A stretch of 59,750 nt of DNA, taken from NCBI GenBank assembly GCA_044356295.1, contig JBIKWN010000010.1:1-59750 (forward strand), written 5' to 3'. The notes under the pieces are model-generated. The model saw nothing but the letters and a program-made list of their open reading frames with translations, was not told the DNA's origin and made no database searches. The position numbers were made by a program, and so were the translations under genes. The DNA comes from Bdellovibrionota bacterium (GTDB lineage Bacteria; Bdellovibrionota_C; UBA2361; JBIKWN01). Positions 4,876-43,253 of the stretch are shown one piece after another; position 1 is the stretch's first letter, and every line of letters starts with the position of its first letter.

Positions 4876-6594
4876 TTAAAATAGCTCCGAATAAAGTTCA
4901 GTAGGTCTTTTCCCTCTTACTAACATTTCTTCTAGTAAAGCTAGATTAATTTTGCTCCATATATCAAGCGTTAATCCCCAGTCTTCTTTAGTCCAACCAG
5001 ATGATGCTTTTATGCGAACAATTTCTTGATATTTTTTTGGATCAAAACATCGCTGACTTATAAAGCTATCTCGATGTACCATCGTGTGCAAAAACTTTTT
5101 TAGTCCACCATTAAACCATTCAATCATTGGTGAATTAAAACCAATTTTACTTCTTCTCGAACGAATCTCATCCGGCATTATGCCTTGCATTGCATCTCTA
5201 ATTATTCTTTTAGTAAATCCTGCGCCAACTTTTGCAGTCGCATCAAGTGAGAATGCATAACTTACCAAACGATAATCCATAAATGGCATCCGCACTTCAA
5301 TACCATGAGCAGCAGAGCATCGATCGAAATTTCTTAAAATTGCAGGCAGAAGGTTTCGATGAAAATCATCATATAATCCATTATTAAATGTCTTCATTGG
5401 CCAATCGAGATAACCGCTGTATCCACCCAGCAATTCATCACTTCCATGCCCGTCAATTGAAACGGTTACTCCTGTTTCTCGAAGCTTTCGGTAGGTACAC
5501 CATACAGGAGTTGCAATAGAATGAGCTACTTCTTCCATCGCCCAAACTGAATCAAGAACATGTGGCAACACTGCAGCATCAGTAAATTCCCAATATGATG
5601 CTTTTGCTCCAATGTGCGAGACTACTAAATTTGCAAAATAACTTTCATCAATAATTGTCCCTGGAAAAGTTGCGATACAAGTTCGCTGCCAGTCAGATTG
5701 AACTCTGTCACCAAGCGATCCTTTTTTATGAAGAAATGCCATTGTTGATGCGACAGCTGTAGAGTCAATTCCACCTGACAGAAGCGTTCCTACTGGAACA
5801 TCACTTCTCATACGTATACGAACAGCATCAAGGAATAAATCTCTGAAAGCTTCTACTTGATCTTCATATTTATTTTCTGGGGTCGGTAGATTATCTCTTG
5901 TCTCCCACCAACGATTCATTCGAATATCACCTTCTTGCGAAACAACTGCGCTATGTCCTGGAAGTAATCGATACACATCTTTTATTAATGTTTTTGAAAC
6001 ATTTCCCTCGGATGAATTACCACTAACAAGTTGAGGAAGCACTTCCTGTTCAAGCGTAGGAGTAAATCCATCGAGGCTACAAAAAGCTTTAATCTCAGAA
6101 GCAAATGCTAATCGATCGGTTACGCTAAAAAAAAGTGGCTTAACACCAAAACGGTCTCGAGAAAGAAAAAGCTCACGTTTTTTAGGATTCCAAATAGCCA
6201 GTGCCCACATTCCATTAAATCGCTTTAAAGCATCACTACCCCAGCAGTGATAGGCAGCAAGAATTACCTGTGTGTCAGTTTGATTTGTAAATCTATATCC
6301 TTGGGCTTCAAGTTCAGATCTGAGTTCCAAGAAGTTATAAACTTCGCCATTAAATGTTATGTATAATTCTTCACCATTAGGCATGACCATTTTCATTGGG
6401 CACTTACCGGCAGGAGAAAGATCTAGAATTGAAAGACGTGTATGACCTAAACCTAGATCAGGATTTCCATGTTCAGCATCAATCCATACATCATGAGCAT
6501 CAGGCCCACGATGATGCACAGACAAGGTAAAACGCTCGAGCGTTTCCCGATTAATCGGACGATTAAAATTCCAAATTCCAGCGATTCCGCACAT
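4876..6594 (-). CDS. asnB: Asparagine synthase (glutamine-hydrolysing) family amidotransferase
   Basis: Start corrected to MCGIAG (Ntn Cys) at 6594; HRGPD, FNGEVYN, SRDRFGVKPL, LSGGIDS, GSDELLGGY, EVRMPFMD. Confidence 0.95.
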   Translation of the reverse strand: MCGIAGIWNFNRPINRETLERFTLSVHHRGPDAHDVWIDAEHGNPDLGLGHTRLSILDLSPAGKCPMKMVMPNGEELYITFNGEVYNFLELRSELEAQGYRFTNQTDTQVILAAYHCWGSDALKRFNGMWALAIWNPKKRELFLSRDRFGVKPLFFSVTDRLAFASEIKAFCSLDGFTPTLEQEVLPQLVSGNSSEGNVSKTLIKDVYRLLPGHSAVVSQEGDIRMNRWWETRDNLPTPENKYEDQVEAFRDLFLDAVRIRMRSDVPVGTLLSGGIDSTAVASTMAFLHKKGSLGDRVQSDWQRTCIATFPGTIIDESYFANLVVSHIGAKASYWEFTDAAVLPHVLDSVWAMEEVAHSIATPVWCTYRKLRETGVTVSIDGHGSDELLGGYSGYLDWPMKTFNNGLYDDFHRNLLPAILRNFDRCSAAHGIEVRMPFMDYRLVSYAFSLDATAKVGAGFTKRIIRDAMQGIMPDEIRSRRSKIGFNSPMIEWFNGGLKKFLHTMVHRDSFISQRCFDPKKYQEIVRIKASSGWTKEDWGLTLDIWSKINLALLEEMLVRGKRPTELYSELF

Positions 6595-38109: not shown

Positions 38110-40494
38110 TTACATCTTTTCGGGGGATTCTACTGGGGGTTCTTCAGAGCCATTTCCTGTTATTTTATCAAACCAACTTCCAAAGAATCCTCTTTTTTTC
38201 ACTACTGGCTCTTCTTCTAGAGGTGCGGATACTTCCTCAGCTCCCTTGGAAGCCGGTGCTACTGTAGCTTTAACATCAGTTTCTAAAGGACTAGAAAGAG
38301 GTTCTGGTTCTGGTTCTGGTTCTGGTTCAGTAGGTGCTACAACTTCCTCAACGATAACTTCAGTTGGACCTCCAACAACTTCGTCAGTAACAGCGCCTTC
38401 TTCTAAATCGCCATCTACCGGTGGAGCACTATCAACATTGCCTTTGGGTGCTTCTATAGTTGCCTCATCTTTATCCAAATCTTCACCTAGCTTAGGCGTT
38501 GAACGTACTTCAATAATTTGTTCACCTACAGCTTCAGGAAAACGTTCTTGAAGTTTTAAAGCAGATTTAATAATTCTCTGCGCAGAGCTTAAATGTCCAG
38601 CAGTTAATGCATCGGCTGCATTCGCTAATAGTTGATTATAACTTTCGTTAAGATCATTTTTAGCAATATTTACAACAGCTGAAATACTATCAGGTCCACC
38701 TTCTTCAATTTGTTTTTCTAATCTTTCAAACATTGCACGAGCTTTAGCAATCACATCGACTCGTAATGATTCTATAGAGGCAGATTCAAGAGCATCTAAA
38801 GATGCTTCAAGACGTGAGTGTTTTTCTGCTATCTCTTGAGCTGCGTCAATTTTCGCTGAAAGCATTTCATTTGCTGTTTCAAGACTTGCATAAAGTTCAG
38901 CTGAAAGGGCGGCATCGTGTTTACCCTCATTTAATTCATTGATATACAATTCACAAAATTGAATGTCTTTATTAAGTCTTTCTACCTGAGAAATATCTGG
39001 ATTTTCCAAATCAGTTACTTCAACAAGACAATCTCTTTCTTCAGTGAGATCAATTAAAATCTGAAACCAAGCATCAATTTCATCTGCTACAACATAAGTA
39101 AGAGCAAGCTCAATCTCAGATTTTTCATAGCCTATGTCGAAAACTTCTTGTTCTGCGGCATCAAAATCAGTCTCAGTTAAATTGAGTTGTTCTTTCAAGC
39201 TTTCAAATTTTGAAGTTCGACTCACTGGCTTATCTTCAATTGCAGATTTCAGCATATCCGTTAACTGAATCGCACTTTCACTATCTGGCGCCTGTCTAAT
39301 GCTATCTTTTAAATTTTCAATATTTTGTTTTGATAATTCGTGGAGCACTTCCTCCGCGGCAATAGGGTCAGCATGTGCAATCGCAGCAATTCTTTCTACA
39401 GCATCTGTTGCAGTTAAAGGTGTTTGACTCACATTATGGCCAATTGCTGGCAAAAACTTAGGTGCTATTATTGCAGGCAATTCTAGGTTACTGATTTGAG
39501 CAACAGACTGCCCAGCTCTTCTGAGAAGGTTAACTGCTTTCCCCAAAAAGACAGATGCGTTTTTAATTTCACCACTTTCAAAACTGTCTTCTATATTGCT
39601 TACAAGTTCGATTTTTCTCTCTTGAACAACAGATGACAGTGCGTCATTGAGAATATCTAAGCAAGCACTTGCCGCTTCAGGTTCAATTGCTCCGCCCACC
39701 AATACATTTACCAAACGTGGGCTTTTTGTATTTGCAACTGCAGCAAGTATTTTTCCATGTTCTTCTTGTGATAACTGATCAGGATTACGTTCAGCGAGAA
39801 GTCCATTTAATGTTTTTTGTGCAGTATGAAGCGCACGCTCTTCACTGGCTTGCATCTTGGAAAGATTATTCAAAGTAGCTTCTTCAGCTTTAATCGTACT
39901 TTTTAAAGCCTCATCATAATCACCATTTTCTAAGTCTAGAATTCTCTGATTTAAGTCAGCAATACTTGTAGTAAGAAGCATCGTATCAACGGCAGCATCA
40001 AAGGGATCGCTTTCATGCTGCTCTTTTATAAGCGCATTTCTTCTATCGACCTCTTCTTTTATCGCATTAGGAACAATTGCTTCGATTTTTTTTCTTTGTT
40101 CTTCAATCAAATCAGATCGGTCTGCAAGCTTATCTATAAGTACGTTCACCGATTCTTCGCTCTTGGCTAATACTTGATCATTTACGAAAAGGTCTTTTGC
40201 ATTTGTAATATGACTTGCAATTGCCTTTTGTTCCGCCGAACCTGGCTCCGCATTTAGGTAGCTCGAACGCATTTCATCTTTCAAAATGCCGAAAGATACA
40301 TGAAGCTCTTTTATGACAGCAGTTGGATCAAACGAAGTAACAACCTTCATAAGTTTCAAAGCTTTCGCGCCTAGTTCTGATAGAATTTGTTTTTGTTCTA
40401 CAGGTGCTACTTCTGGGGTTGCGCCATTCGAAGATGTATTTAAATCCTGATCAGGATTATTAAGTTCTTGCTTTGATTGTGTTGCTGCGCTCAT
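38110..40494 (-). CDS. Large acidic coiled-coil orphan protein
   Basis: 794 aa, E/A/L-rich; PEPEPEPEP linker and KKRGFFGSWF amphipathic segment near the C-terminus. Confidence 0.8.
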   Translation of the reverse strand: MSAATQSKQELNNPDQDLNTSSNGATPEVAPVEQKQILSELGAKALKLMKVVTSFDPTAVIKELHVSFGILKDEMRSSYLNAEPGSAEQKAIASHITNAKDLFVNDQVLAKSEESVNVLIDKLADRSDLIEEQRKKIEAIVPNAIKEEVDRRNALIKEQHESDPFDAAVDTMLLTTSIADLNQRILDLENGDYDEALKSTIKAEEATLNNLSKMQASEERALHTAQKTLNGLLAERNPDQLSQEEHGKILAAVANTKSPRLVNVLVGGAIEPEAASACLDILNDALSSVVQERKIELVSNIEDSFESGEIKNASVFLGKAVNLLRRAGQSVAQISNLELPAIIAPKFLPAIGHNVSQTPLTATDAVERIAAIAHADPIAAEEVLHELSKQNIENLKDSIRQAPDSESAIQLTDMLKSAIEDKPVSRTSKFESLKEQLNLTETDFDAAEQEVFDIGYEKSEIELALTYVVADEIDAWFQILIDLTEERDCLVEVTDLENPDISQVERLNKDIQFCELYINELNEGKHDAALSAELYASLETANEMLSAKIDAAQEIAEKHSRLEASLDALESASIESLRVDVIAKARAMFERLEKQIEEGGPDSISAVVNIAKNDLNESYNQLLANAADALTAGHLSSAQRIIKSALKLQERFPEAVGEQIIEVRSTPKLGEDLDKDEATIEAPKGNVDSAPPVDGDLEEGAVTDEVVGGPTEVIVEEVVAPTEPEPEPEPEPLSSPLETDVKATVAPASKGAEEVSAPLEEEPVVKKRGFFGSWFDKITGNGSEEPPVESPEKM

Positions 40495-40821
40495 AAAAGT
40501 ACCTTTAAAAAACTTCTTGTACCAAGATATGTGTCGTTTGAGTCGGGTGTTACGTAATAAAATAAATTTATTGGCAATCCTGTCTGCGTGATTTATCTAA
40601 CGATATCTAATAGTTACAAACTTCAGCGCTATATTGGGTCGCATATTTTTATAAGAATTTTTACCATTCTTGCGCCGTATTGTCCTTAAGTGGCTTATGT
40701 TTCCCCAAAAAAGCTTCACTTTGAGATTTTCTGATCCCATAGATTCCTCAATACAACTTAGAAGCGAGGTCATTTTCGCAAAACTTGGAAACTATTGCTG
40801 CAAATAGATCGAAAAATCAGA

Positions 40822-41142
40822 ATGCATTATGTCTATATTTTAAGGAGCAAATTTTTTAATAGGCAGCTTTATGTTGGAATGACTACTAATTGTAATAGGC
40901 GATTGTCTGATCATAATGAAGGGAGAAGTTGTCACACTGCAAAGTTTCGTCCTTGGGAGTTGGTTTATACAGAAAAATTTGAATGCTCTCTTGAGGCTGT
41001 TCGGAGGGAACGACAGGTTAAGAAATGGTCTCGTGGGAAGAAGGAGGCGTTGATTGCTGGGGATTTTGTTAGGTTAAAAGAATTAAGCCTTTCGACTCCC
41101 CTTCGACAAGCTCAGGGTCGCTCAAGGCAGGCCCGCAAATGA
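40822..41142 (+). CDS. Small GIY-YIG nuclease (UPF0213-like)
   Basis: MHYVYILRS...LYVGMT..RRLSDHN.G...T.KFRPWELVY.E...ERQVKKWSR.KK..LI. Confidence 0.93.
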   Translation: MHYVYILRSKFFNRQLYVGMTTNCNRRLSDHNEGRSCHTAKFRPWELVYTEKFECSLEAVRRERQVKKWSRGKKEALIAGDFVRLKELSLSTPLRQAQGRSRQARK

Positions 41143-41294
41143 ATTCGATAAGCTTATTTTCTTTGATACTGGTACAGAGCGGAGTTGGAGAGTCCGCCCT
41201 TCGACTCCCCTTCGACAAGCTCAGGGTCCGCTCAGGGCACTCGACTCGCATTCAGATTGCGGGGCCTGCCACGAGCGAGCGAAGCGAGTCGAGT
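41087..41294. repeat. REP-like repeat cluster between GIY-YIG gene and tmRNA 3' end
   Basis: Identical 29-mer TTCGACTCCCCTTCGACAAGCTCAGGGTC at 41091 and 41200; inverted pairs GGCAGGCCCGCAA/TTGCGGGGCCTGCC and ACTCGACTCGC/GCGAGTCGAGT. Confidence 0.88.
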
Positions 41295-41694
41295 GGAGAT
41301 GGCGGGAATCGAACCCGCGTCCGAGAAGCGTCAACACTAGCTTTCTACACGTTTAGTAATCCCTTTATGTCTTACCAAAGGAGCTTTAGATCACGAAATC
41401 TCGCTTGGCCAGAGTCGCTTTTGTCTTAAAGTTATATAACGACCATATAACTTCCAGTCCACCTATGGTTTAAAGTTCAACAAAGATCATGAACTTATCT
41501 TTGTAAAACCGGCTCGGTGATCTCTCAGCGAACCATTTTAGCTTTAAGCGTTTACAACTTTTTGGTTGTAAGCGATATCGCTGTTAGTTGCATTAAAGTT
41601 TGCATCTACATTTTCTCCGCTTTTTTAAGAGGCCAGCGGACCCTCTACGTGCTTACCAGTGCCTCAAGAATCCCGTCGAAACCAGTGCATCCCC
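41294..41694 (-). ncRNA. ssrA: tmRNA (transfer-messenger RNA)
   Basis: 5' GGGGATGCACTGGTTTCGACGGG; 3' GGACGCGGGTTCGATTCCCGCCATCTCCA; acceptor stem with G3-U70; tag frame TAGAT-GCA AAC... at 41603-41544; next to smpB. CCA not encoded. Confidence 0.96.
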
Positions 41695-41942
41695 AAAGAA
41701 CTTTTGGAATTTGAAAAATTCCGTCGATAGATCAATCTTCATTAATCGATCGACGGGATTCTTGAAAAACAACACTGCCGCCGGCTAGGAGCAAAGCGAC
41801 CCAGGCGGGCTCCCGTCGAAACCATGTCTCAATAGCGGTAGCTGTTGAACAAAACAACACTGCATCCCCAAAGAACTTTTGGAATTTGAAAAACTCCGTC
41901 GAGCGATCAAACTCAATTAATCGATCGACGGGATTCTTGAAA
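41686..41942. repeat. Direct duplication of the tmRNA 5' leader and 5' end
   Basis: 82-bp near-identical copies at 41686-41767 and 41861-41942 (offset 175); TCCCGTCGAAACCA at 41671 and 41811; AAAACAACACTGC at 41766 and 41851. Confidence 0.9.
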
Positions 41943-41958
41943 TTTTTAATCTAAATCT

Positions 41959-41987
41959 ATTATGAGCACGCACAAGGCGAAATTCAA
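41959..41987 (-). promoter_or_regulatory. Candidate sigma70 promoter for ssrA
   Basis: Minus strand TTGAAT-17 nt-CATAAT just downstream of the smpB stop. Confidence 0.55.
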
Positions 41988-42001
41988 GGAGAAGTAAGGG
42001 T

Positions 42002-42469
42002 TTAACCTGACTTAATTCTACGCTGAATATCCCTTTTAGCGTCCTTCTCTTTAATATCGCTTCTCTTATCGATTGTATTCTTACCCTTACCAAGGGCAAC
42101 TTCAACTTTGACCCGTCCATTTTTGAAGTAAACTTTTAATGGAACAAGTGTTAGTCCTTTTTGTTCAACTTTACTCTGAAGTTTTTCGATCTCTTTTTTA
42201 TGCATTAAAAGTTTTCGTTGAACTGTTGGATCATACTCACGGTTAGTATCATGTGAATAAGCCTTTATGTGGGCACCTAACAGAAAAAGTTCACCATGAA
42301 ATGGGCGTATATAACTTTCTTGTAAACTAAGCCCCCCTGAGCGAATTGATTTCACTTCAGCACCAGTTAAAACAATACCTGCCTCGTGAGACTCAAGGAT
42401 CGTAAAATTAAATCGAGCTTTTCGATTTTCAGATGCAATTTTGATTGATGAATCAGATGGTTTGCTCAC
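42002..42469 (-). CDS. smpB: SsrA-binding protein
   Basis: NRKARFNF, EAGIVLTGAEVKSIR, RKLLMHKKEI, GKGK..DKR. Confidence 0.98.
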   Translation of the reverse strand: MSKPSDSSIKIASENRKARFNFTILESHEAGIVLTGAEVKSIRSGGLSLQESYIRPFHGELFLLGAHIKAYSHDTNREYDPTVQRKLLMHKKEIEKLQSKVEQKGLTLVPLKVYFKNGRVKVEVALGKGKNTIDKRSDIKEKDAKRDIQRRIKSG

Positions 42470-42518: not shown

Positions 42519-43253
42519 TTATAGATTGGCAACTGAAAAAATTACTTCTCTGCCGTCTGGCACCTCGTTTAAAGCATCAATATGCACTGCTCTAACCTCG
42601 CTTAAACTTTTCACATGGGTTCCACCACATGCGTTTGCATCAATACCATCGATGACAATTAGCCGTACTGACCCTTTTAATGAGCCAGAGGCTACTGTCG
42701 GACGGTATACATCTTGATATAATTCAATCGCTTCACTTTCACTTTTAACTGTTTGTGAAGAAATTTTTCTATCTTCTTTGATGAATGTTTCAACTAATAA
42801 TAATGCTTCATTGAGTTCTGTTTCTTGTAACGAAGAGTGATGGGGATAAAGCACTGAACATGTTGTTGTAGAATCAGAGATCTTCATGCCACCAGTAAGA
42901 ATATCTTTTCTTATAATTCTAAGTGCCCCGGCTAGAGCATGTTGACCTGAGTGAAGTCGCATAGTTTTATATCTTCTCTCGAAATCGAGAATACATTCTA
43001 CCTCCATCCCTTTTTGAACTTTTGCATCTGAACTTATTACATATCCAGTATTACCTTTCTCTTTCATTATTCTTAAAAGAGGAAAGTCGACACCTTCAAT
43101 TTTAATAACTCCGTGATCCATCGGTTGACCTCCTCCTTCCATAAAGAGGGCTTCACGGCAAAATAGTGCAACCCCATCATCCAATGGTAAAATTCGGTCA
43201 ATAACAGTAAGAGCTGATGCGAGATACGGATCGCTTCGATAAAGAGGAATCAT
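42519..43253 (-). CDS. alaX: Free-standing alanyl-tRNA editing protein (AlaX-M-like)
   Basis: EGGGQP.DHG, RLHSGQHAL (HxxxH), ACGGTHV (CxxxH). Confidence 0.88.
   Translation of the reverse strand: MIPLYRSDPYLASALTVIDRILPLDDGVALFCREALFMEGGGQPMDHGVIKIEGVDFPLLRIMKEKGNTGYVISSDAKVQKGMEVECILDFERRYKTMRLHSGQHALAGALRIIRKDILTGGMKISDSTTTCSVLYPHHSSLQETELNEALLLVETFIKEDRKISSQTVKSESEAIELYQDVYRPTVASGSLKGSVRLIVIDGIDANACGGTHVKSLSEVRAVHIDALNEVPDGREVIFSVANL

Follow-up and report, generated by a model that had tools for sequence, protein, structure and literature searches.

Head-copy units before the tmRNA gene of a Bdellovibrionota bacterium: a possible 5' counterpart of tRNA-linked repeats

Why should a tmRNA gene be preceded by a spare copy of its own beginning and by two perfect antisense copies of its nucleotides 16-31? 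This question is raised by the region between smpB and ssrA in a Bdellovibrionota bacterium, which was analysed in a stretch of 59,750 nucleotides (the window). The elements of the locus are as follows.

42002..42469, minus strand: smpB coding sequence (155-aa ORF; PF01668 SmpB, 189 bits), directly upstream of the repeat region.
41959..41987, minus strand: sigma-70-like promoter candidate, TTGAAT-17-CATAAT, a consensus match only.
41884..41943, minus strand: leader hairpin 1; mirror copy 1 (41940-41925), perfectly complementary to tmRNA nt 16-31, lies in its 5' arm.
41861..41869, minus strand: spare head part a, GGGGATGCA, a copy of tmRNA nt 1-9 at the end of an 85-nt repeat.
41825..41860, minus strand: 36-nt insert interrupting the spare head; the junction motif GTGTTGTTTTG opens it, and a small TACC-loop hairpin comes next.
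41811..41824, minus strand: spare head part b, TGGTTTCGACGGGA, a copy of tmRNA nt 11-24 (100%).
41779..41810, minus strand: GC-rich segment with the loop motif TCGCTTTGCTC, resembling part of a module 3' of the tmRNA in G073.
41766..41778, minus strand: junction motif GCAGTGTTGTTTT, directly before mirror copy 2.
41710..41767, minus strand: leader hairpin 2; mirror copy 2 (41765-41750) lies in its 5' arm.
Within 41710..41767, minus strand: 3' arm of leader hairpin 2, a decayed direct copy of tmRNA nt 14-31.
41293..41694, minus strand: ssrA (tmRNA) in the standard one-piece form, with tag ANFNATNSDIAYNQKVVNA (ARAGORN; Rfam RF00023).
41679-41664, minus strand: tmRNA nt 16-31, the target of both mirror copies.
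41238..41292, minus strand: 3' trailer module, which begins with the last tmRNA bases (CTCGACTCGCTTCGCTCGCTCGTGGCAGG...) and has a 12-nt inverted repeat.
40795..41142, plus strand: small GIY-YIG nuclease gene (PF01541, 66 bits), convergent with ssrA and just past the 3' trailer.

One full unit of 175 nt (41869-41695) can be delimited, with a partial unit, leader hairpin 1, upstream of it. The full unit consists, in order, of a copy of head nt 1-24 carrying the 36-nt insert, the GC-rich segment, GCAGTGTTGTTTT, a long palindromic hairpin and a copy of the final 17 leader nucleotides. The 175 nt between the repeats hold no ORF of note, no recombinase gene and no cargo. The direct repeat itself measures 85 nt (41683-41767 and 41858-41942) and is 92% identical. 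TGGTTTCGACGGGA occurs at 41684-41671 and 41824-41811, with 0.00 occurrences expected by chance (100 shuffles), and GCAGTGTTGTTTT at 41778-41766 and 41863-41851. The spare head begins with GGGGATGCA (41869-41861) and resumes with TGGTTTCGACGGGA after the insert at 41860-41825; the true gene has a single C instead of the insert. The tmRNA contains, at 41679-41664, the exact complement of TCAAGAATCCCGTCGA, which itself is found at 41765-41750 and at 41940-41925. These three matches compare with 0.04 expected, and three were reached in 0/100 shuffles. Mirror copy 2, a 16-nt mirror at -71 from the head, was equalled in 0/200 shuffles.

Is the structure real? A sequence-only reading had described a duplicated tmRNA leader, a decoy tmRNA 5' end (the copy of nt 1-24 split by 36 nt) and two perfect 16-nt antisense copies, and every named element is present on the minus strand where it had been placed. 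One detail did not hold up: the small GC hairpin at 41779-41810 exists as a segment, but its predicted fold is no better than shuffles in the host genome (z +1.39). Misassembly is excluded. The repeat copies differ at 6/73 positions, and a contig from an independent DNA run covers 41691-42050 with 0 differences. The same layout is found in a sister species of the same genus (G002), where the complementarity between leader and tmRNA is kept. The two outcomes that had been named as fatal to the sequence-only reading, a misassembly and the loss of complementarity in relatives, are thus contradicted by a sound assembly and by the sister species. RNA cover, from Logan contigs of three metatranscriptome runs, spans 41300-41656, and such contigs cannot show transcript ends. 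They end short of 41709-42050; the DNA run breaks likewise at 41632/41691, so neither the gap in RNA cover nor the shared stopping point is informative on the leader.

Which of the two heads is the 5' end of the tmRNA? In G002, G012 and G036, ARAGORN takes the upstream head as the start of the tmRNA (lengths of 492-540 nt), and the minimum-energy fold pairs the upstream head with the 3' end, as if the 175-nt unit were an expansion inside an unusually long tmRNA. This reading is scarcely credible. The Rfam model RF00023 fits the proximal head at 172 bits, end to end over model positions 1-374. The upstream head of the window is split and ends at nt 24, so that helix 2 would be 150 nt away, and arrays of up to four units, as in G036, cannot all be internal. 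The wrong-head start makes the annotated tmRNAs of the three relatives some 100-140 nt too long. Permuted two-piece tmRNA genes are thought to arise through the duplication of ssrA parts, and partial 5' duplications of the kind seen here would be raw material for permutation. The gene in the window is not itself permuted: the RF00023 match is in standard order and the permuted model RF04321 reaches only 26.6 bits against a gathering score of 47.

Is the arrangement peculiar to one genome? With interrupted copies counted, at least 14 of the 68 genomes examined from the order, spread over 8 of 21 families, have head-copy units before ssrA; 54 of the 68 have none. Each locus carries one to four tandem units, each beginning with a copy of the tmRNA head. 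The head pattern was searched by exact matching, since a version with two mismatches was swamped by chance hits; an exact 20-nt head pattern occurs at least twice in tandem in 10/91 genomes, while the reversed-pattern control gave 1 hit in all. Outside the order the pattern matched in only 5/33 genomes of the phylum, which provides no usable census there. When 185,579 species genomes were scanned for two heads 99-129 nt apart, 54 loci were obtained; only 6 of them contain a tmRNA, and all six belong to the host's order. A metagenome scan with the 16-mer TCAAGAATCCCGTCGA gave at least 120 single chance matches, with a tmRNA in none of the matches listed.

The unit of the window is inherited within its genus and is a member of this order-wide family. 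In BLAST comparisons of the window and G002 units with the loci of relatives, only tmRNA-derived pieces matched and no unit-specific hit was obtained. Hairpin inserts lie at the same spare-head site in G086, G006 and G033, making four families altogether, and a 35-nt hairpin related to the 36-nt insert lies at another place in G002. The ORF between smpB and ssrA in G002 has no Pfam match and, by that test, is not a nuclease or recombinase.

The leaders appear to evolve in concert. Between paralogous leaders, identity is 91.8% in the window and 100% in G002, whereas between the two species it is 81-85%; that paralogues resemble each other more than their counterparts in the other species indicates concerted evolution.

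The same design is found at tRNA genes of this genome. Units 5' of tRNA-Val, tRNA-Gly and tRNA-Arg-tcg carry copies of head nt 1-29 at -121, nt 1-26 at -125 and nt 1-20 at -100, respectively. After the head copy of tRNA-Val, the 12-nt junction GTGTTGTTTTGT is followed by a TACC-loop hairpin, as in the 36-nt insert of the window. Leader sequence before +1 is duplicated as well, over 73 nt at ssrA and 33 nt at tRNA-Val. Downstream of five tRNAs, the tail reappears as a mirrored copy of 14-20 nt. Head-copy units are thus not specific to tmRNA; three tRNA genes share the design and the junction motif. The exact motif CAGTGTTGTTT has 5 hits in G000 and 5 in G002, and in each genome 3/5 are no farther than 100 nt from a tRNA or tmRNA gene. 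With one mismatch allowed, the junction motif gives 125 hits genome-wide against 85 for the reversed control, and so only exact or contextual hits were used.

Could the locus have arisen by a single accident? A neutral one-off tandem duplication of leader and gene start by replication slippage, followed by small insertions, would fit the tandem layout, the 92% likeness of the copies and the fact that no function has been demonstrated. Such an event would hardly account for the same architecture in the sister species and in other families, with an insert at the same site in four families, or for its recurrence at three tRNA genes with a shared junction motif. Moreover, mirror copies are no product of simple slippage, and this explanation is very improbable. 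A dispersed repeat of the MITE or REP type was also considered and rejected: the 338-nt region has no other match with E < 0.07 in the 2.96-Mb host genome.

Related modules are also found on the other side of the gene, stacked behind ssrA and ending in tail copies of ssrA. Modules with a terminal copy of the tmRNA tail lie 3' of the tmRNA in 8/25 loci and in 6/29 loci; reverse-strand and upstream controls, run on the first set of 25 only, gave 0 hits. The module type of the trailer at 41238-41292 follows the tmRNA or its 3' modules in G027 and G073. The two sides share sequence. BLAST finds matches (31-45 nt, 93-97% identity, E 1e-8 to 4e-14) between the 127-nt 5' units of two genomes, G054 and G073, and the 3' modules of four others; the 5' units of the other three genomes of genus g8 gave no BLAST hit to 3' modules. 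A pattern search places the core of a hairpin, hairpin A, in the units of all five g8 genomes; across 9 sequences, 13 pairs are kept and none is broken, and in 4 of the pairs both sides have changed. The GC-rich segment of the window aligns to L042 with a local score of 31, above 300/300 shuffles (maximum 29). The TCGCTTTGCTC loop motif has 8 hits in tmRNA flanks, all on the tmRNA-sense strand, and 0 on the reverse strand.

Do these modules mark the entry of a mobile element? Island integration at ssrA with duplication of part of the gene is well known, and the repeats of ssrA and tRNA islands are the 3' part of the gene and flank kilobases that include an integrase. The locus is like such islands in having a direct repeat of a piece of an RNA gene and in keeping the gene intact through the copy beside its body. 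It differs in that the 5' part is repeated, in gene-less units of 100-217 nt, and in that the upstream leader is duplicated too. For these reasons it does not qualify as an integrase-borne island scar, and the only nuclease gene is on the 3' side. Tandem accretion has been described for islands at tRNA genes (PMC9897764, PMC11915505).

An integrase-type or homing-nuclease element might have entered ssrA after nt 23-30 and brought a replacement head, so that the upstream copy would be the displaced original and the present units gene-less remnants. Several observations would suit such an origin. All 15 intact upstream copies that were measured, from nine genomes, start at +1 and match the resident tmRNA exactly up to the narrow zone of nt 23-30. 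Throughout genus g8, the native promoter and leader stand in front of the first head. Some genomes of a genus have units and others do not (5/36 genomes in g8; 1/2 examined of 4 genomes in g24), and modules are common to the 5' and 3' sides and to different families.

Also in favour of such an origin, a homologue of the GIY-YIG nuclease gene, which is single-copy in the host genome, occupies the same place and orientation in 7/37 tmRNA loci of the order, the window included. However, the gene lies beside 5' units only in the window, and there on the other, 3' side of ssrA; a GIY-YIG cassette linked to the 5' units was accordingly rejected. The absence of recombinase gene and cargo between the repeats, the near-identity of adjacent units in G054 (126/127), which fits local amplification, and the duplication of the leader before +1, which an incoming element is not expected to carry, also weigh against this origin, which we regard as unlikely. 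The sequence-only proposal of a scar left by an element targeting the 5' end therefore came close but was too narrow: there is a recurrent family of small, tandem head-copy units, with no integrase or cargo.

What known system do the units resemble most? Gene-end repeats, the tRNA-linked repeats (TLRs), still await an explanation, although they have been known since 1978. The TLRs of Escherichia coli are small, non-coding tandem units of unknown function, present in 1-5 copies per locus; by definition, the last 18-19 bp at the 3' end of the unit exactly repeat the 3' end of the upstream gene (PMC8144298). The E. coli set used for comparison includes the tyrT/tyrV 178-bp repeats and RtT RNA (Rfam RF00391); no RF00391 match was found at the locus at gathering score or at E up to 10. 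As with TLRs, a stable-RNA gene is adjoined by small tandem non-coding units carrying an exact copy of a gene end, with one full and one partial unit in the window and one to four in relatives, within the 1-5 of TLRs. The ssrA 3' flank in the host's order carries modules of the TLR kind. Unlike TLRs, which lie downstream of a tRNA or rRNA gene within an operon, the units lie upstream of ssrA, between the promoter candidate and +1, and the 5' end of the unit copies the 5' end of the gene downstream, so that only the mirror image of the TLR rule holds. In addition, the gene is a tmRNA and a mirror copy is part of the unit.

The reading favoured here, with a probability that we would put near the halfway mark, is that the smpB-ssrA units are the 5' counterpart of tRNA-linked repeats and are carried passively in the pre-tmRNA leader. 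Units would originate at the edge of a stable-RNA gene, by duplication or by insertion, and would then be amplified by unequal recombination and homogenised by gene conversion. The whole array would be transcribed from a single upstream promoter as a leader of ~255 nt. The candidate at 41959-41987 is the sole one between smpB and ssrA, and the two sigma-70-like sites in the region are no excess over shuffles (0.8 +/- 1.0). The array would be harmless because RNase P presumably cleaves at the head that runs on directly into the tmRNA body, and each mirror copy may be locked early in its own local hairpin. The leader hairpins fold at -22.5 kcal/mol (z -4.26, hairpin 2) and -23.3 kcal/mol (z -4.21, hairpin 1). 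Antisense and "decoy" would then be design features of the repeat, with no dedicated regulator of tmRNA.

Several findings stand against passive carriage. The analysis turned up neither an enzyme nor a mechanism by which the units spread. The unit of the window has no dispersed copies in its genome and no BLAST-level match to the modules of other families; only its GC segment aligns to a 3' module, and the counterpart in G002 does not (16/300 shuffles reach its score against 3' flanks, which is not significant). The minimum-energy folds of the precursor are predicted to be misfolded rather than harmless. The mirrors at other heads and the conservation of the mirror block, considered below, tell in the same direction.

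Is the mirror copy under selection as RNA? A significant mirror, defined as one equalled by at most 1/200 shuffles, lies 47-73 nt upstream of 7/84 heads, in six genomes of families f1, f5, f10 and f21. These mirrors always cover head nt 16-35, and six different head sequences are all matched by complementary mirrors, as would also be expected from selected RNA pairing. All four leader copies, from two species, share a 22-nt block containing the mirror without a single difference (22/22), against ~75% identity over the remaining leader; the partner arm within the local hairpin has drifted, and the long-range complement to the tmRNA is perfect. The identity of the block looks like constraint on complementarity to the tmRNA itself.

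These observations could point to a cis-acting RNA device, in which the leader antisense would transiently pair with nascent tmRNA nt 16-31, a stretch that we take to cover the D-loop analogue together with the 5' strand of helix 2, and the spare head would compete for the 3' acceptor strand, so that RNase P maturation and folding are timed or limited. The precursor minimum-energy fold (-215 kcal/mol, z -5.4) contains both pairings: the 3' acceptor strand is taken by the spare GGGGAUG, and true tmRNA nt 16-31 by mirror copy 2. In rRNA precursors, leaders assist folding and form processing stems, and a leader stretch able to pair with the beginning of the mature RNA could likewise guide or delay folding until processing; a difference is that the complementarity here is absent from most relatives.

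Such a device is possible but doubtful. The units of 8/14 unit-bearing genomes (five g8 genomes, G012, G036 and G013) lack the mirror, and most genomes of the order manage without any unit at all. In the array of G033, both mirrors tested match the next head, though those heads are non-functional copies, and the direct-plus-mirror design is also present at host tRNA genes. The local leader hairpin, at -22.5 kcal/mol, forms before transcription reaches the tmRNA head and should trap the mirror, and a perfect 16-bp duplex would be hard to release after cleavage. Nor was a terminator-like site found on the minus strand of the region scanned for promoters; the U-run behind each leader hairpin is predicted to be paired within the stem, and the hairpins are thus unsupported as terminators. 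No Rfam family matched the leader. Measured as an attenuator or riboswitch, the locus offers predicted alternative pairings, and a mirror is seen at only 7/84 heads. For the folding switch of the sequence-only reading the evidence points both ways: the folds permit it, and the antisense shows unusual conservation and, in other families, covariation with the next head, but most unit-bearing genomes lack the antisense, which matches non-functional heads within an array as well, and tRNA genes share the design.

A stronger version seems somewhat less probable still, namely that the mirror-type unit is a selected pre-tmRNA device, in which a covarying cis-antisense would sequester the D-loop analogue, together with the 5' strand of helix 2, until the 3' half has been synthesised, and disabled spare heads would compete for the one 3' acceptor strand. 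If true, the device would set the rate at which RNase P releases functional tmRNA and would add a control point of trans-translation not known before, with the units at tRNA genes doing the same for tRNAs.

If the units are passive gene-end repeats, as favoured here, TLRs would have a 5' counterpart, and tmRNA genes would carry both kinds. Gene-end repeats are frequent, structured and evolving in one bacterial order, so that comparative work can test their origin. Concrete hypotheses, either of RNA-level control of tmRNA maturation or of a new mechanism of DNA rearrangement at stable-RNA genes, follow from the covarying antisense and from the hairpin insert that recurs at one spare-head site.

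The sequence-only reading had claimed a promoter, a doubled leader, an interrupted tmRNA 5' end and a perfect 16-nt antisense upstream of ssrA, and all of these elements were located on the minus strand. The upstream copy of the first bases (head) of tmRNA is termed the spare head.

Features of the smpB-ssrA spacer in the window
42469-42002, minus: smpB (PF01668, 189 bits), preceding the ssrA repeat region
41987-41959, minus: promoter-like site, TTGAAT-17-CATAAT
41943-41884, minus: leader hairpin 1
41869-41861, minus: GGGGATGCA, tmRNA nt 1-9 (spare head)
41860-41825, minus: 36-nt insert
41824-41811, minus: TGGTTTCGACGGGA, tmRNA nt 11-24 (spare head)
41810-41779, minus: GC-rich segment
41778-41766, minus: GCAGTGTTGTTTT, the junction motif
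41767-41710, minus: leader hairpin 2
41694-41293, minus: tmRNA (ssrA)

The leaders are copies of each other, a direct repeat of 85 nt with 92% identity. Both contain the 16-mer TCAAGAATCCCGTCGA, the mirror, whose exact complement is tmRNA nt 16-31; the 16-mer and its complement give three matches against 0.04 expected, a number reached by none of 100 shuffles. The spare-head part TGGTTTCGACGGGA also recurs above chance in a shuffle test, and both leader hairpins fold with z ~ -4.2 relative to shuffled sequences. A small GC hairpin had been proposed as well: the GC-rich segment is present but its predicted fold, like that of the 36-nt insert, is no better than those of shuffles in this genome. 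Adjoining smpB is a gene for a 244-aa AlaX-like protein (42519-43253, minus), whose sole domain is PF07973 (editing/second additional domain of alanyl/threonyl-tRNA synthetases). The 794-aa product of 38110-40494 (minus), acidic, of low complexity and containing a PEPEPEPEP stretch, has no Pfam match.

Is the arrangement an artefact of assembly? Six of the 73 positions compared distinguish the leader copies, and 41691-42050 is matched without any difference by a contig of an independent DNA run, which refutes misassembly. The repeat region is single in its 2.96-Mb genome. In a second genome of the genus, G002, the parts follow one another as in the window (leader, head copy of nt 1-23, GC hairpin, junction motif, leader, tmRNA), and the significant mirror there is complementary to the resident head, so the complementarity is kept in a relative. 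The spare head of G002 is intact, unlike the split copy in the window; an additional decayed copy lies further upstream, and a related 35-nt hairpin stands as two tandem copies in the loop of leader 1 rather than within the head. The window has A and G002 has G at acceptor-strand position 5, and in each genome this base is matched both in the spare head and in the 3' acceptor strand. Leader identity is 91.8% within the window and 100% within G002, and 81-85% between the two species; this excess of within-genome identity indicates, from sequence comparison, that the leader copies evolve in concert. Thus, the feature is real, inherited within the genus and broader than first described. G002 also has, in the interval from smpB to the ssrA repeats, a 201-aa ORF with a CxxC motif on the opposite strand (L010:722-1327), which has no Pfam match; the corresponding interval of the window holds no such gene.

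The 91 genomes of the order represent 21 families. Of these genomes, 65 contain an exact match to a 20-nt head pattern, for which a reversed-pattern control gave one match overall. In 10 genomes (G002, G012, G013, G033, G036, G054, G059, G067, G073 and G079), a single contig carries two or more tandem occurrences of the pattern, with periods of 100-217 nt and five heads in G036. Inspection of the DNA upstream of the head in 68 genomes (the 23 with no located head are left out of the partial-copy count) revealed further, interrupted copies in the window, G006, G022 and G086, for a total of 14/68 genomes with repeat units, from 8 of the 21 families. All 15 intact head copies measured begin at +1 and match the resident tmRNA exactly through nt 23-30. 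In genus g8, the native promoter and leader always precede the first head, and the same sequence precedes tmRNA in unit-less relatives. When one genome from each of 185,579 species was scanned for pairs of heads spaced 99-129 nt, 54 loci were returned; six contain tmRNA, all from this order, and the other 48 are unrelated repeats. Tandem heads are therefore restricted to this group, for that head sequence and spacing. A one-off neutral duplication is contradicted by the recurrence of units and is very improbable, and internal expansion within a long tmRNA seems scarcely credible. At three loci (in G002, G012 and G036), ARAGORN places the tmRNA start at the upstream spare head; gene lengths then come out at 492-540 nt, and the tag begins at 191-233 instead of ~92.

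A significant upstream complement (reached by at most 1 in 200 shuffles) was found for 7 of 84 heads tested: those of the window, G002, G006, G022 and G086, and two in an array in G033. All seven mirrors lie 47-73 nt upstream of the head and cover head nt 16-35. This stretch has six sequence variants and the mirror is complementary to each, so the proposed co-variation of the antisense arm with tmRNA is seen across relatives. In the G033 array, two unit variants alternate, the mirror is complementary to the head that follows, and the rest of the units is ~85% alike. Families f1, f5, f10 and f21 share one architecture: head copy, GC stem with variable loop, U-rich motif, mirror, A/T-rich leader of ~30-55 nt, and next head. 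In four families (the window, G086, G006 and G033), a hairpin insert interrupts the spare head at one site, 3' of nt 7-11 and 5' of GGTTTCGAC; it begins GTGTTGTTTT in the window and GTATTGTTGTT in G086. The G033 array (C2:180760-181358, L044) stands at a contig end with no tmRNA body. Another contig of that genome begins with a tmRNA 3' end (C33:23-104, L045) and has a complete, unit-less tmRNA 5.6 kb on (5755-6108, L024); ssrA may be present in two copies, or an island may lie in between.

Is the mirror under selection? Between the window and G002, identity is 91.4% for tmRNA, 76.3% for smpB (DNA) and 81-85% for the leaders. A 22-nt block with the mirror is identical in all four leader copies of the two species, the remaining leader is ~75% identical, and the partner arm of the leader hairpin has drifted; by simple arithmetic, 0.75 to the power 22 is ~0.002. 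This two-species comparison favours some constraint on complementarity to tmRNA, or the mirror may have been re-copied repeatedly from the tmRNA gene. With one promoter candidate ahead of it, the array would form a leader of ~255 nt. In the predicted minimum-energy fold, an alternative structure of the kind envisaged earlier, the mirror is base-paired to tmRNA nt 16-31 and the 3' acceptor strand is taken by the spare head; as the RNA is transcribed, the local leader hairpin would be the first of these to form. Mature tmRNA is present in RNA libraries, being covered by RNA contigs of three metatranscriptome runs (two studies). A selected folding or maturation device, one of the two origins first suggested, is a possible but minority explanation.

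Units with hairpin modules after the head copy and no mirror occur in g8 (5/36 genomes), G012, G036 and G013. Among g8 units, only those of G054 and G073 (127 nt) gave BLAST matches, to modules 3' of tmRNA in four other genomes (31-45 nt, 93-97% identity, E 1e-8 to 4e-14). Across nine sequences, taken from 5' and 3' of ssrA, 13 pairs of their first hairpin are preserved; 4 of the 13 are changed on both sides and none is broken. The modules are stacked 3' of ssrA, each ending in a degenerate tmRNA tail copy. A strict pattern finds them at 8/25 and 6/29 loci; in the first set (25 loci) none is on the reverse strand or upstream. The GC segment of the window aligns to a G073 3' module above 300 of 300 shuffles, and its G002 counterpart does not exceed all shuffles. 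All eight occurrences of the motif TCGCTYYGCTC in tmRNA flanks are on the sense strand. Tandem units of ~105 nt in the 3' flanks of L024 and L029 (G022) each hold an inverted T-arm copy and end in the tmRNA tail (…CCCCACCTCCACCA).

Similar copies flank tRNA genes. Among 37 tRNA and tmRNA genes identified by ARAGORN in the window's genome, three tRNAs have head copies 100-125 nt upstream, with hairpin filler.

Head copies upstream of tRNA genes in the window's genome
C74:25441-25650: tRNA-Val(gac), nt 1-29, leader piece duplicated too
C76:33470-33683: tRNA-Gly(gcc), nt 1-26, leader piece duplicated too
C110:1390-1571: tRNA-Arg(tcg), nt 1-20

The tRNA-Val copy is followed by GTGTTGTTTTGT and a TACC-loop hairpin, as in the 36-nt insert, and the tRNA-Arg(tcg) copy by a close variant of the junction motif and a hairpin. 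Mirrored copies of the 3' part (14-20 nt) lie 27-203 nt downstream of five tRNAs: Arg(tct) on C12, Met on C23, Pro(ggg) on C38, Trp on C50 and Arg(cct) on C63. The first also has a direct copy. The junction motif stands beside the mirrored tail at tRNA-Cys, tRNA-Arg(tct) and tRNA-Met, and likewise behind tRNA-Cys in G002. The exact 11-mer CAGTGTTGTTT occurs five times in each of these two genomes, and in both, three of the five are no more than 100 nt from a gene for tmRNA or a tRNA.

What kind of repeat is this? The preferred reading, held at about even odds, is a 5' counterpart of the tRNA-linked repeats of E. coli, which passages of PMC8144298 define by a 3' end identical to that of the upstream gene and describe as of unknown function. 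Such units would originate and multiply where stable-RNA genes begin or end, and would be tolerated because RNase P removes everything upstream of the head joined to the gene body. Two points tell against this gene-end reading: the mirror is conserved and covaries, and no mechanism was found. The other origin first suggested, in which an integrating or homing element left scars and restored the gene's head, is retained as an unlikely rival; partial tRNA genes are treated as integration or CRISPR products in portions of PMC9897764. A small, convergent GIY-YIG nuclease gene lies directly behind ssrA in the window and six others of 37 loci compared, and among these no association with 5' units was found. 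In the window a ~40-nt segment (…GAGCG.ACCCTGAGCTTGTCGAAGGGGAGTCGAA…, minus-strand reading) occurs twice within 41087-41238, in the tmRNA trailer (~41238-41197) and overlapping the end of the nuclease gene (~41127-41087), whose final residues thus come from a repeat also found on its own.

Titles and abstract openings from a literature search revealed no repeats of the ssrA head on its 5' side. Three gene forms are described in the 2025 tmRNA database paper (PMC11915505), and a word search of its main text gave neither 'tandem' nor 'duplicat'. For annotation, spare heads are a pitfall in locating tmRNA starts with ARAGORN. The feature of the window is a new form of a known, still unexplained kind of repeat.
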